DNA of 64,000 bases from Candidatus Woesearchaeota archaeon (GTDB taxonomy: Archaea > Nanobdellota > Nanobdellia > SCGC-AAA011-G17 > VGLX01): positions 20,985 to 84,984 of the forward strand of contig CAYSAF010000002.1 in NCBI GenBank assembly GCA_964428965.1, in the 5' to 3' direction. The position numbers and the translations under genes were made by a program. Position 1 is the stretch's first letter. Every line of letters begins with the position of its first letter. Under the pieces are notes generated by a model. It did no database searches and was not told the DNA's origin. It worked only from the letters and a program-made list of their open reading frames with translations. Shown in pieces: positions 23,069 to 25,668 of this stretch.

Positions 23069-23761
23069 ATGAAAGAACCACCCAAAGTGCTAGTCGGATG
23101 CCCAACATCACACCACAAAGGATACTGCCTCAAAGAGTATGCAGAAGCGGTAAAAAGCCTGACTTACAAAAACTACGACGTACTACTGGTAGACAACTCA
23201 GAAAACTATGAATACGTGGAGAAAATAAGGAAAGAAGGGCTGCCTGTGATAAAGGGACCATACTTCGAGGGAGCAAGGGACAGAATAATAGAATCGAGAA
23301 ACATGCTAAGAGAAAAAACCATTAAAAGCTATGACTACTTCTTAAGCCTTGAGCAGGATGTGATACCCCCAAAGGATATAATAGAAAAACTCATCAGACA
23401 TGGCAAGGAGATTACAACAGGAGTTTACTTTGCCTACAACCAAGTCCCAGACGGTAGGGTGGTTTTAATACCGCTGGTATACAAACTGGTTGATGAAAAG
23501 ACACTGACCATGAGAAACCTCAGTGAAGATGAGGTATTCCAGGATCAGGTAATTCAAGTAGTATCGTGCGGACTTGGTTGCGTGTTGATAGGCAAAAAAG
23601 TACTTGAAAAAATAAAATTCAGATACGAGTTAAACACATTCGACGACAGGTGGTTCTGCAAAGACGCTTACAACCTGAAAATACCGATATACGCGGACAC
23701 AAGCGTGAGATGCAAACACCTCATATCAAAACACCAAAGATGGAGCGATATAAGGAAATGA
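23069..23761 (+). CDS. Minimal GT-A fold (GT2-like) glycosyltransferase, tandem copy 1
   Basis: 'VLVGCPTSHHKGYC...YDVLLVDNSEN' resembles GT2 'IPTYN...VIVVDDGS'. 'LEQDVIPP' is a DxD-like motif. 'GLGCVLIGKKVLEKIKFRYE...FDDRWFC' resembles the GT2 C-terminal region. Confidence 0.55.
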   Translation: MKEPPKVLVGCPTSHHKGYCLKEYAEAVKSLTYKNYDVLLVDNSENYEYVEKIRKEGLPVIKGPYFEGARDRIIESRNMLREKTIKSYDYFLSLEQDVIPPKDIIEKLIRHGKEITTGVYFAYNQVPDGRVVLIPLVYKLVDEKTLTMRNLSEDEVFQDQVIQVVSCGLGCVLIGKKVLEKIKFRYELNTFDDRWFCKDAYNLKIPIYADTSVRCKHLISKHQRWSDIRK

Positions 23762-24453
23762 AAGTGCTCGTAGGGGGGCCTGTTTCGGATATGCACGAAT
23801 ACTGCTTTGAAGAGTTGGTGAGGTCAAGAAAGAGCCTGATATACAAAAACCATCACGTAATGCTTGTAGACAACTCAGAAAAAGACGAATTCTACAAAAG
23901 ACTTAAAAAAGAAGGTTTTCACGTCGAGAAAGTAGGTTACAGAAAAAAAGCAAGAGACAGATTAGTTGACAGCAGAAACCTTCTAAGGAAATACGCGATA
24001 GAAAATAATTACGACTACTTCCTAAACCTAGACCAAGACATAATACCGCCAAAAGACATAATAGAAAGACTGCTGAAACACAAAGAAAAAATAGTTACCG
24101 CAATATACTTCAACCCGATAAGACTGCCACTAACAGGAGAGGTTAAGTTAAGACCTGTAGTAGGAGTTATGGAAGGGACAAAGATAAGATTCCTCAAACC
24201 AGAAGAGATGAACAAAGGATTAAGGGAAGTTGACGTGTGCGGATCAGGATGCATAATAATGCACAGGGAAGTGCTTGAAAAAGTAGAATTCAGATACAAC
24301 AAGGAAAGTGACGGATTTGACGACGTTATGTTCGTTTACGACGCAAAACAGAACGGATACAAGGTTTATGCTGATACCTCACTTTTAGTAAAGCATTTAG
24401 TTATAAGCAGACCGTGGAGCTGGAAGGAACTTCAAAAGAAGAACGAAATGTAA
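23758..24453 (+). CDS. Minimal GT-A fold glycosyltransferase, tandem copy 2. The start is placed at the ATG that overlaps the upstream TGA as ATGA.
   Basis: 'MKVLVGGPVSDMHEYC...HVMLVDNSEKD', 'LDQDIIPPKDIIERL', 'GSGCIIMHREVLEKVEFRY...FDDVMF'. Confidence 0.55.
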   Translation: MKVLVGGPVSDMHEYCFEELVRSRKSLIYKNHHVMLVDNSEKDEFYKRLKKEGFHVEKVGYRKKARDRLVDSRNLLRKYAIENNYDYFLNLDQDIIPPKDIIERLLKHKEKIVTAIYFNPIRLPLTGEVKLRPVVGVMEGTKIRFLKPEEMNKGLREVDVCGSGCIIMHREVLEKVEFRYNKESDGFDDVMFVYDAKQNGYKVYADTSLLVKHLVISRPWSWKELQKKNEM

Positions 24454-24455
24454 AA

Positions 24456-25133
24456 ATGAAAGCAAAAATACTGGTAGGGTGCCCTACCTCTGACCATAAA
24501 TCTTACTGCCTGAAACAGTACGCAGAAGCGGTAAAGAAGTTAACTTACAAAAATCACAGCTTATTAATCGTCGATAATTCAAAAAGCCAGGCATACTCAA
24601 AAAAGATGAGAAGCATGGGATTAAAGGTGCTAAAAGACGAGTACAAAGAAAATGCGAGAGAGAGAATAGTCAGCTCCAGAAACATAGTAAGGGAAGAAGC
24701 GATAAAGAACTATGACTACTTACTAAGCCTGGAACAAGACGTGATACCGCCAAAAGACATAATAGAAAGACTGCTGAAACACAAAAAAGAGATAACCACA
24801 GGATTGTACTTCACTTACAAAACGGAAGATGAAACAAAAAAAATAATACCGCTACTATGGACTCTCGACGATAAAGAACCGAGAAACCTCACAGAAGAAG
24901 AAGTCATGCAAGACAGAGTAATAGAGGTAGAAGCAGCAGGACTGGGGTGCATGCTGATAGCAAAAGAGGTTCTCAAAAAAATAAAATTCAGGTACGAAAA
25001 GAAGAGCCAAGCTTTTGACGACATGTGGTTCTGCAAAGACACAAAGGAGAAAGGTTACAGCATAGTAGCGGACACAAGCGTTAAGTGCAAGCACCTGATA
25101 GAAAAATGGAGCTGGGAGGGGATAAAGAAATAG
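24456..25133 (+). CDS. Minimal GT-A fold glycosyltransferase, tandem copy 3. Alternative start at 24414.
   Basis: 'MKAKILVGCPTSDHKSYC...SLLIVDNSKS', 'LEQDVIPPKDIIERL', 'GLGCMLIAKEVLKKIKFRYE...FDDMWFCKD'. Confidence 0.55.
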   Translation: MKAKILVGCPTSDHKSYCLKQYAEAVKKLTYKNHSLLIVDNSKSQAYSKKMRSMGLKVLKDEYKENARERIVSSRNIVREEAIKNYDYLLSLEQDVIPPKDIIERLLKHKKEITTGLYFTYKTEDETKKIIPLLWTLDDKEPRNLTEEEVMQDRVIEVEAAGLGCMLIAKEVLKKIKFRYEKKSQAFDDMWFCKDTKEKGYSIVADTSVKCKHLIEKWSWEGIKK

Positions 25134-25144
25134 AAATGGCAAAA

Positions 25145-25226
25145 GCCGGGGTCGCATAACGGTATTGCGCAGGTCCCGAAAACCTGTTTCCTCACGGATA
25201 TCTGGGTTCGAATCCCAGCCCCGGCG
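25145..25226 (+). tRNA. Class II-type tRNA of 82 nt without CCA. It has a 3-bp D-stem and a 15-nt variable arm. The anticodon loop as folded reads CCCGAAA, giving anticodon CGA, probably Ser.
   Basis: Acceptor GCCGGGG pairs with CCCCGGC, and the discriminator is G. T-arm is CUGGG-UUCGAAU-CCCAG. D-loop is UAACGGUAU. Anticodon stem is CAGGU/ACCUG. Variable arm is UCC-UCAC-GGA. Confidence 0.6.
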
Positions 25227-25279
25227 AGATTATTACCAAACAAGTTTAACCAATAGAAAGCGTTATAAATCAAAATTCT

Positions 25280-25465
25280 ATGAAAAATATCATGAAGGAC
25301 CCATTGCCAAAAGAGCTGTTAGACATACTAGCATGCCCTATCTGCAAAGCAGACTTGAAGTACGGCAAGGAAAAGAAAACTCTTGCATGTACCAAGTGCA
25401 AGCACGAATACGAGATAAGAGACGGGATACCAATACTGTTACCACCCAAAGCCGGGGTCGCATAA
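25280..25465 (+). CDS. Trm112-like (DUF343/YcaR) small zinc-ribbon protein
   Basis: 'LLDILACPICKADLKY...LACTKCKHEYEIRDGIPILLP' matches the Trm112 family pattern. Its last 15 nt, including the TAA stop, overlap the 5' end of the downstream tRNA. Confidence 0.7.
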   Translation: MKNIMKDPLPKELLDILACPICKADLKYGKEKKTLACTKCKHEYEIRDGIPILLPPKAGVA

Positions 25466-25567
25466 CCTGGTATTGCGCAGATTCTAGGAATAGAAGCGTA
25501 AGCCTTGAGAGATGCCAGGTAAGCCTGTTTCCTTCGGGATATCTGGGTTCGAATCCCAGCCCCGGCG
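25451..25567 (+). tRNA. Intron-containing class II-type tRNA of 117 nt. Its acceptor, D and T arms match the upstream tRNA, with an insertion of about 33-40 nt in the anticodon arm. If the intron sits at the canonical 37/38 position, the anticodon is possibly UAG (Leu).
   Basis: The acceptor stem and T-arm are identical to tRNA 25145..25226. The variable arm is CC-UUCG-GG. The extra segment is 'AAUAGAAGCGUAAGCCUUGAGAGAUGCCAGGUA', between the 5' half 'CAGAU UCUAGG' and the 3' half 'AGCCUG'. Confidence 0.55.
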
Positions 25568-25668
25568 AGATTATATTCTTTTAATAAAAGAAGTAAAAGA
25601 CTATACAAGGCTAATGTCAGTTCTGCCGCATTACTTAGTGTCAATTCTCGGCTGTTGCTTAGAAGAAA

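Follow-up and report, generated by a model that had tools for sequence, protein, structure and literature searches.

Introduction

Archaeal tRNA genes can carry several introns. Multi-intron genes interrupted at positions 29/30, 30/31, 37/38 and 59/60 have been documented, with introns of 11-129 nucleotides (nt) and with HBh' motifs, that is, bulge-helix-bulge (BHB) splice motifs without the outer helix (PMC4090602). The tRNA-Pro(UGG) gene of Pyrobaculum islandicum is interrupted at 25/26, 37/38 and 56/57 (Sugahara et al. 2007/2008, summarised in PMC4090602), and in the DPANN archaea (named for Diapherotrites, Parvarchaeota, Aenigmarchaeota, Nanoarchaeota and Nanohaloarchaeota) tRNA gene disruption is increased and has been linked to endonuclease loop insertions (PMC5829648). 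Here we describe a tRNA locus in a 64,000-nt stretch of DNA from a Candidatus Woesearchaeota archaeon (GenBank assembly GCA_964428965.1, contig CAYSAF010000002.1, positions 20,985 to 84,984 of the forward strand; hereafter the window, whose own numbering we use throughout). Two class II tRNA genes lie there on the + strand, tRNA 1 at 25145-25226 and tRNA 2 at 25451-25567, with a spacing of 224 nt (an earlier first-pass annotation of the same letters had counted 225) and a gene for a Trm112-family protein between them. We conclude with high confidence that the locus is a conserved Woesearchaeota (DPANN) arrangement of tRNA-Ser(CGA), a putative promoter, trm112 and tRNA-Ser(UGA), in which the tRNA-Ser(UGA) gene is doubly interrupted.

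The closest described counterparts are the multi-intron tRNAs of the Crenarchaeota/Thermoproteales. As in those genes, canonical and non-canonical BHB/HBh' introns occur together in one gene, the non-canonical site at 29/30 is a listed one, the introns fall within a short size range (11-25 nt), and relatives of the window gene have a third intron at 59/60. The window gene differs in its host, a member of the Woesearchaeota (DPANN), in its identity as tRNA-Ser(UGA), in the 8-nt anticodon mini-exon that sits between its introns, and in having its 5' end overlapped by a protein-coding gene. It is an additional multi-intron archaeal tRNA of a gene structure type already known. The second point of comparison is the split tRNAs, namely the tri-split tRNA-Gly of Caldivirga maquilingensis and the tRNA-Glu(UUC/CUC) of Nanoarchaeum equitans with its shared 3' half (Fujishima 2009; Randau 2005; PMC4090602, PMC4033280). 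The tri-split tRNA, too, has a short anticodon piece (positions 26-37 there, 30-37 here) between a non-canonical and a canonical BHB site, and two related loci (L007 and L021) hold a UGA and a CGA piece, either of which could be joined to the same 5' and 3' parts. The split tRNAs, however, are separate transcripts joined in trans, whereas the three exons described here follow one another within 117 nt of one strand, in cis in a single gene, and the window holds one anticodon piece only; the likeness is one of logic only.

The locus is ordinary but easily mis-annotated. The first-pass annotation had recognised two paralogous class II tRNAs, an archaeal intron, a C at position 33 of tRNA 1 and a 15-nt overlap between a coding sequence and tRNA 2, all of which stand; its count of introns, its anticodon for tRNA 2 and the duplication that it proposed do not. 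Standard tRNA finders likewise miss or mis-call the tRNA-Ser(UGA) gene, and in DPANN genomes this essential decoder would consequently be scored as missing, or as a recoding tRNA.

Two introns flank an 8-nucleotide anticodon exon in tRNA-Ser(UGA)

As the first-pass annotation had observed, the two tRNA genes share the acceptor stem (GCCGGGG/CCCCGGC), the discriminator G73 and the T-arm, and their D-arms differ solely by a 2-nt indel in the D-loop; once tRNA 2 is spliced in silico, 74 of 84 aligned positions match. G73 and a long variable arm are identity elements of tRNA-Ser, whereas A73 is the discriminator of tRNA-Leu. Both genes have the long variable arm (about 15 nt between anticodon stem and T-stem), G73 and a 7-nt loop that holds a serine anticodon, CGA in tRNA 1 and, once spliced, UGA in tRNA 2.

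With permissive filters, the Rfam tRNA model aligned to the acceptor, D and T arms of tRNA 2 at 35.1 bits (family threshold 29). In this alignment a 59-nt insert replaces the anticodon arm, which is 33 nt longer than expected. The 33 extra nucleotides and their reading as archaeal intron sequence agree with the first-pass annotation, which had placed them in a single intron; we find instead two introns, of 21 and 12 nt, around an 8-nt exon. After removal of both in silico, ARAGORN calls the product tRNA-Ser(tga), with a perfect 5-base-pair (bp) stem CAGGC/GCCUG and the loop CUUGAGA, that is, U33, anticodon UGA and G37. The parts of the gene are as follows.

25451 to 25567, + strand: tRNA-Ser(UGA) gene with two introns; precursor 117 nt, 84 nt when spliced (Rfam tRNA model; in-silico splicing)
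25451 to 25480, + strand: exon 1, tRNA positions 1-29, 30 nt, ending in UUGCGCAG (in-silico splicing, orthologue comparison)
25481 to 25501, + strand: intron 1, 21 nt, non-canonical site 29/30, ATTCTAGGAATAGAAGCGTAA (RNA AUUCUAGGAAUAGAAGCGUAA; minimum free energy fold, orthologues)
25502 to 25509, + strand: exon 2, an 8-nt mini-exon, tRNA positions 30-37, GCCTTGAG (RNA GCCUUGAG; invariant in orthologues)
25505 and 25506 to 25508, + strand: U33 and the anticodon UGA, both within exon 2
25510 to 25521, + strand: intron 2, 12 nt, canonical site 37/38, AGATGCCAGGTA (RNA AGAUGCCAGGUA; motif comparison, folding)
25522 to 25567, + strand: exon 3, tRNA positions 38-73 (long variable arm, T-arm and G73), 46 nt, starting AGCCUG

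At both junctions we found a 4-bp central helix and two 3-nt bulges on opposite strands; the helix consists of the four bases immediately 5' of each bulge, and the cut falls after the second base of each bulge. For intron 1, G24-C27 (GCGC) pairs with GCGU of the intron, the bulges are AG/A and AA/G (slash, cut), and the inner side closes as a 5-bp hairpin, UUCUA-GGAA-UAGAA. Folding the precursor, a check that the first-pass annotation had proposed, recovers this motif exactly in the unconstrained minimum free energy (MFE) structure (z = -3.25). For intron 2, C32-G35 (CUUG) pairs with CAGG of the intron, and the bulges are AG/A and UA/A. This geometry agrees with the published placement of anticodon bases 34-35 in the central helix of the BHB (PMC4090602). 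Neither motif has the strict hBHBh' form, in which an outer and an inner helix, each of at least 2 bp, enclose the bulges and the central helix: intron 1 is without an outer helix (HBh'), and the inner helix of intron 2 is 1 bp long. Both are relaxed (HBh'/hBH-like) motifs, a form known from Crenarchaeota and DPANN. The outer helix of intron 2 is the anticodon stem, which is complete only after intron 1 has been removed. In the mechanism that we propose, the archaeal splicing endonuclease would remove both introns at their bulge-helix-bulge motifs, and ligation of the exons of 30, 8 and 46 nt would yield a standard class II tRNA-Ser with U33 and the anticodon UGA.

Further pairings involve intron 2. 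The D-loop segment CCUGGUAU (25466-25473) is complementary over 8 bp to AUGCCAGG of intron 2 (25512-25519), and the two are paired in the MFE fold; CAGG of intron 2 could alternatively pair with CCUG of the anticodon stem.

Several points weigh against a doubly interrupted gene within a trm112 transcript. The missing outer helix of intron 1 and the nearly missing inner helix of intron 2 would require an endonuclease of relaxed specificity, and the intron-1 motif takes up G24-C25 of the D-stem, so that the precursor would have to refold. The intron mode of ARAGORN favours another single-intron model, albeit a poorly paired one, and an enumeration of single and double excisions that leave a 5-bp stem and a 7-nt loop admits several other patterns. 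A weak TATA-like element, ATAAGAGA (25415-25422), lies within trm112, 29-36 nt upstream of tRNA 2, and might serve as a promoter inside that gene. Moreover, splicing, the order of its steps and co-transcription are predicted here from DNA sequence. Since structure by itself cannot decide which segments are excised, the choice of splice model rests on comparative data.

Orthologous genes carry the predicted junctions

We gathered related loci (numbered L001 onwards) by three routes: the contigs of Trm112 homologues, a pattern scan of GTDB with one genome per species, and a scan of metagenomes. The GTDB scan gave 13 loci, all from Woesearchaeota/Nanoarchaeota. Six of the 13 have the 26-nt anticodon arm TGCGCAGGCCTTGAGAGCCTGTTTCC unbroken and intronless, identical to the spliced arm of the window gene, and the remaining seven have the 37/38 intron only. 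In the trm112-syntenic locus L002, GCGCAGGCCUUGAG is uninterrupted, and intron 1 is thus absent precisely at the predicted junction; at 37/38 the same gene is interrupted by an intron of 15 nt, in which CAAG complements CUUG perfectly. The metagenome scan added 11 further genes with intron 1, from lineages with different acceptor stems.

Where intron 1 is present, its sequence drifts and its motif does not. L004 and L033 have intron 1 in common and differ in intron 2, and in L006 intron 1 has UCCU/AGGA instead of UUCU/AGAA and GCGC instead of GCGU. The 14 distinct intron-1 sequences compared (17-33 nt) all have the same bulges and a central helix of 4 bp, whereas their inner hairpins, of 3-12 bp, are unrelated in sequence. 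Site 37/38 holds introns of 12-29 nt in the orthologues, or none. Between the two sites, exon 2 (GCCTTGAG) is invariant in 23/23 distinct orthologous genes. In a mini-alignment of intron 1, 91.9% of the cells are paired, as against 27-57% after a shift of the partners by 1-3 columns. Double-sided changes occur in three pairs, and 0/500 shuffles reach the observed covariation score, a test to be read with the caveat that the alignment was built from the intron ends. Excision of both introns restores a canonical cloverleaf, and the intronless orthologues carry the very junction that it predicts. The exon junctions and the conservation of the motifs thus establish the gene structure of tRNA-Ser(UGA) at the level of sequence, and splicing of its transcript would be expected to follow them.

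These comparisons bear directly on the anticodon. The first-pass annotation had proposed a single intron of about 33-40 nt at 37/38, leaving the loop UCUAGGA with the leucine-type anticodon UAG and C33, in a gene that would be a diverged duplicate of tRNA 1. A single 33-nt excision does give a perfectly paired stem, CAGAU/AUCUG, around the loop UCUAGGA, but it does so at 40/41; excision at 37/38 yields no paired stem, and no BHB motif is found at the junctions of this model. Furthermore, the stretch TCTAGGA that would hold the anticodon has no counterpart at all in L002 or the six intronless orthologues and is hypervariable in the others, and the stem breaks in L006 and L007. The discriminator G73 is by general identity rules a feature of serine rather than leucine tRNAs, and the orthologues, with their invariant GCCTTGAG, give UGA and U33. 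The proposed 'loop' is the inner hairpin of intron 1. We therefore regard a tRNA-Leu(UAG) at this site as extremely improbable. ARAGORN in intron mode, also proposed in the first-pass annotation as a check, returned for the window a 'tRNA-Pyl(cta)' whose stem is mismatched, and for the orthologues inconsistent, poorly paired isotypes (Pyl(cta), Ala(tgc) and Ile(aat)); we rejected both sets of calls.

A different explanation would be decay of tRNA 2 into a pseudogene, with insertions having broken its anticodon arm and no functional tRNA made from it. ARAGORN with default settings and Rfam at its gathering threshold report tRNA 1 only, and the flanking helices are weak in both motifs, as decay would predict. 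On the other hand, each exon is intact and matches its counterpart in the intronless orthologues exactly, the geometry of the motifs is kept with compensatory changes in at least 14 diverged lineages, and the gene occupies the conserved syntenic site of tRNA-Ser(UGA), a tRNA needed for UCA codons. Decay is thus very unlikely, and we retain a doubly interrupted, intact tRNA-Ser(UGA). The family as a whole offers a natural series for studying intron gain and loss, from no intron through 37/38 to 29/30 plus 37/38, and on to a further intron at 59/60.

Other members of the family show additional interruptions. The tRNA-Ser(UGA) genes of L022 (- strand), L029 and L031 (- strand) have a third intron of about 32-42 nt in the T-loop, at 59/60 after GGTTCAAA, and so contain three introns (29/30, 37/38 and 59/60); in L012 the T-loop holds a single intron, about 107 nt long. 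At L008:6060-6370, the 5' part of a tRNA-Ser(UGA) (acceptor GCCACCG) breaks off behind the variable arm and is followed by a second tRNA-Ser(UGA), which is complete; the matching 3' end, AATCCGGGCGGTGGCG, lies about 110 nt further on. This arrangement looks like an insertion or integration into a tRNA gene, or else a very long T-arm intron. Four contigs from independent assemblies (L042, L044, L045 and L046) end inside the tRNA-Ser gene, at ...GGTACTG or ...TGCGCA. These breaks probably reflect repeats among tRNA-Ser genes or a duplicated cassette, and short-read assemblies may under-represent such genes.

Two anticodon cassettes within one gene in related lineages

In the L007 and L021 lineages, outside the window, a unit of 15-16 nt that comprises the 3' splice-site half and the mini-exon (RNA unit GCGUAA/GCCUUGAG) is tandemly duplicated, giving ...GCGTAA/GCCTTGAG/(A)AGCGTAA/GCCTCGAG/... 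in the DNA. The two copies differ only at the wobble position 34 (U versus C), so that one reads UGA and the other CGA. The dual-cassette tRNA-Ser genes are the following.

L007:3160-3290: dual-cassette tRNA-Ser gene
L021:106-237 (pattern match 141-214), - strand: dual-cassette tRNA-Ser gene
L024:323-454: dual-cassette tRNA-Ser gene
L036-L041 and L043: dual-cassette tRNA-Ser genes downstream of a methyltransferase gene

A separate CGA gene is missing from this site in the trm112-syntenic locus L007, and L032, its close relative, carries only one cassette. L021, L024, L036-L041 and L043 form a second, diverged lineage found in at least eight assemblies, including GCA_035288605.1 (L037). Either copy splices in silico to a valid product, tRNA-Ser(UGA) or tRNA-Ser(CGA). 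In constrained folds, the two alternative pairings of exon 1 with GCGU differ by 1 kcal/mol in L021 and by 5 kcal/mol in L007. If the duplications arose independently, the chance that a lone U34-to-C difference separates the copies in both lineages is, by our own estimate, about (1/48)(1/45), or about 5e-4; if they share an origin, both copies have been kept while the introns around them diverged. Either history points to function.

The arrangement suggests how two isoacceptors might come from one precursor. GCGC of exon 1 may pair with either copy of GCGU, and either copy of exon 2 with the last intron, in which case mutually exclusive splicing would yield tRNA-Ser(UGA) or tRNA-Ser(CGA). We propose tentatively, and with rather less than firm conviction, that the mini-exon between two BHB introns may be a swappable cassette, of which the window gene would represent the single-cassette ground state. 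We know of no description of two isoacceptors made from one gene by alternative splicing, and the literature that we searched, with incomplete coverage, gave no report of alternative anticodon exons encoded in cis. With a dual cassette, the 'jigsaw' of the tri-split tRNA (PMC4033280) would have a counterpart in cis. If confirmed, the dual-anticodon cassette would matter more widely, and it is the source of most of the interest of the locus. A search for further dual-cassette genes in viral contigs returned only one chance match, in GC-rich coding DNA; among the methyltransferase neighbours looked up, the L046 contig ends inside the tRNA, and synteny is lost in L047 and L048.

A trm112 reading frame ends inside the tRNA gene

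The interval between the two tRNA genes is occupied by trm112 and the element upstream of it.

25256 to 25270, + strand: BRE (B recognition element)/TATA-like element GAAAGCGTTATAAAT upstream of trm112, conserved in related loci
25292 to 25465, + strand: Trm112-family gene (Pfam PF03966), 57 amino acids from ATG 25292; the open reading frame also opens at ATG 25280, for 61 amino acids
25463 to 25465, + strand: stop codon TAA of trm112, 15 nt inside tRNA 2
25451 to 25465, + strand: overlap of trm112 and tRNA-Ser(UGA), 15 nt, codons A-G-V-A-stop, in the 5' acceptor strand and D-stem

The protein matches PF03966 at 47.7 bits (E 1.4e-12, cut-off 22) and has both CxxC pairs, CPIC and CTKC. In these respects it resembles Trm112, a small zinc-ribbon protein that activates methyltransferases acting on tRNA, rRNA and release factors, and it differs in that its last five codons, stop included, are supplied by a tRNA gene. 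The element GAAAGCGTTATAAAT, with its TATA part at 25263-25270, is nearly invariant in eight related loci and lies about 22-27 nt upstream of the ATG that is shared with the relatives, where it would serve as the promoter. Because of this position and because the closest homologues are 57 amino acids long and start MKD..., the evidence suggests that translation starts at ATG 25292 and not at 25280. The same position would imply that the trm112 mRNA has a very short leader or none.

The C-terminus ...PPKAGVA is encoded by an AAA (Lys) codon at 25448-25450, just outside tRNA 2, together with the first 15 nt of the tRNA, which end in the stop codon. The ending ...KAGVA is conserved in six relatives (P0001, P0002, P0004, P0005, P0006 and P0009), in which the DNA likewise continues straight into the tRNA; in L004, the TAA abuts the tRNA with no gap. 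The 15-nt overlap, noticed already in the first-pass annotation, is therefore not peculiar to this genome. As read from the related loci, trm112 and the tRNA were already tightly linked in the ancestor, and the overlap, a side effect of losing a stop codon, has been conserved: with none before the tRNA, translation of trm112 would continue 15 nt into it, as far as the TAA in the D-arm.

Among the related loci compared, we found no conserved TATA element upstream of tRNA 2 or within the 3' end of trm112. We rejected the weak element ATAAGAGA as an internal promoter, as it is not conserved in L034 or L032. Since no convincing separate promoter precedes it, tRNA 2 is probably co-transcribed with trm112 and would then be released by RNase P. 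Such release would remove the stop codon from the mRNA, which makes the balance between the two products a testable question.

C33 in tRNA-Ser(CGA)

The first gene of the pair, tRNA 1, is a conventional class II tRNA gene with one anomaly.

25145 to 25226, + strand: tRNA-Ser(CGA), intronless, class II, G73 (ARAGORN; Rfam RF00005, 52.9 bits; cloverleaf)
25176, + strand: C33 of tRNA-Ser(CGA) (read from the sequence)

Both ARAGORN and direct reading of the sequence bear out the anticodon loop given in the first-pass annotation, CCCGAAA, with the anticodon CGA and C33. Position 33 is a near-universal uridine in elongator tRNAs, the cited exceptions being eukaryotic initiators, with C33, and Candida tRNA-Ser(CAG), with G33 (PMC5041475). 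The same C33 appears in an independent ENA contig (L001) that differs from the window at 3/6186 positions, and so is not an assembly slip. Both available orthologous CGA genes, in L002 and L006, have U33; the L002 gene is intronless, with the loop CUCGAAA.

We consider the change from U33 to C most likely a tolerated, lineage-specific one in a dispensable isoacceptor, since tRNA-Ser(UGA) probably decodes UCG as well and relatives are often without a CGA gene here (it is absent from the syntenic site in L004, L007, L032, L033 and L034). The gene could instead be inactive or strongly impaired and heading for loss: U33 is essentially universal in elongator tRNAs apart from special cases (PMC5041475) and is retained in both orthologues, the gene is missing from the site in the five loci just named, and UCG is the rarest serine codon in the window (54/17,603 codons, 4.5% of serine codons). 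Yet every stem is perfectly paired and C33 is the single defect, the Rfam score is high, C33 is fixed in two slightly different assemblies, and working eukaryotic initiator tRNAs carry C33 (PMC5041475). The parallel with eukaryotic initiator tRNA-Met extends to the cytidine in place of the U-turn uridine (PMC5041475); the tRNA described here is, by contrast, an archaeal elongator tRNA-Ser, and its C33 is seen in one lineage only. On balance we judge an inactive or impaired tRNA unlikely, though well within reason, and a working tRNA-Ser(CGA) the better reading of the gene.

The CGA gene of L006 (L006:2402-2514) is itself interrupted by two introns, at 30/31 and 37/38, and its central helix is re-matched (CGCC:GGCG). 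The presence of the same intron site in both paralogues suggests that an intron passed from one to the other.

Possible gene conversion between the two neighbouring tRNA genes

The similarity of the two tRNA genes extends past their 3' ends.

25568 to 25574, + strand: trailer AGATTAT of tRNA 2, identical to the tRNA 1 trailer at 25227-25233

The T-arm, the 3' acceptor strand and this 7-nt trailer are identical between the two genes here and are not so in the relatives. The first-pass annotation had ascribed the resemblance to a segmental duplication taking in both the tRNA and the end of trm112 and leaving a 7-codon remnant, 'MAKAGVA', before its stop. The identical 3' parts and the AAA that precedes both tRNAs might be taken in favour of such a recent event. 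The block shared upstream, however, is that AAA only, 3 nt in an A-rich genome, and the remainder of 'MAKAGVA' is forced by the tRNA sequence, so that it is no gene remnant. The order CGA, trm112, UGA recurs in L002 and L006 with the two tRNAs clearly diverged, so that the arrangement is ancestral and not the outcome of a recent segmental duplication. In its anticodon arm (CAGGT.C.CGAAA.ACCTG), moreover, tRNA 1 conforms to the CGA orthologues rather than to the UGA type. Recent duplication is accordingly very improbable, and the identical 3' parts are better explained otherwise: the local homogenisation of both genes suggests gene conversion between neighbouring paralogues in this lineage. What had been described as an anticodon change is the difference between two isoacceptors. 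The proposed gain of an intron is real, although the introns are two in number and intron 1 is shared by many lineages.

Upstream of the locus, the window holds three tandem paralogous genes (23069-25133) for proteins of about 230-240 amino acids with weak Pfam matches to Anp1/Glycos_transf_2, the last of which ends 11 nt before tRNA 1. The array is also found in relatives, in variable copy number.

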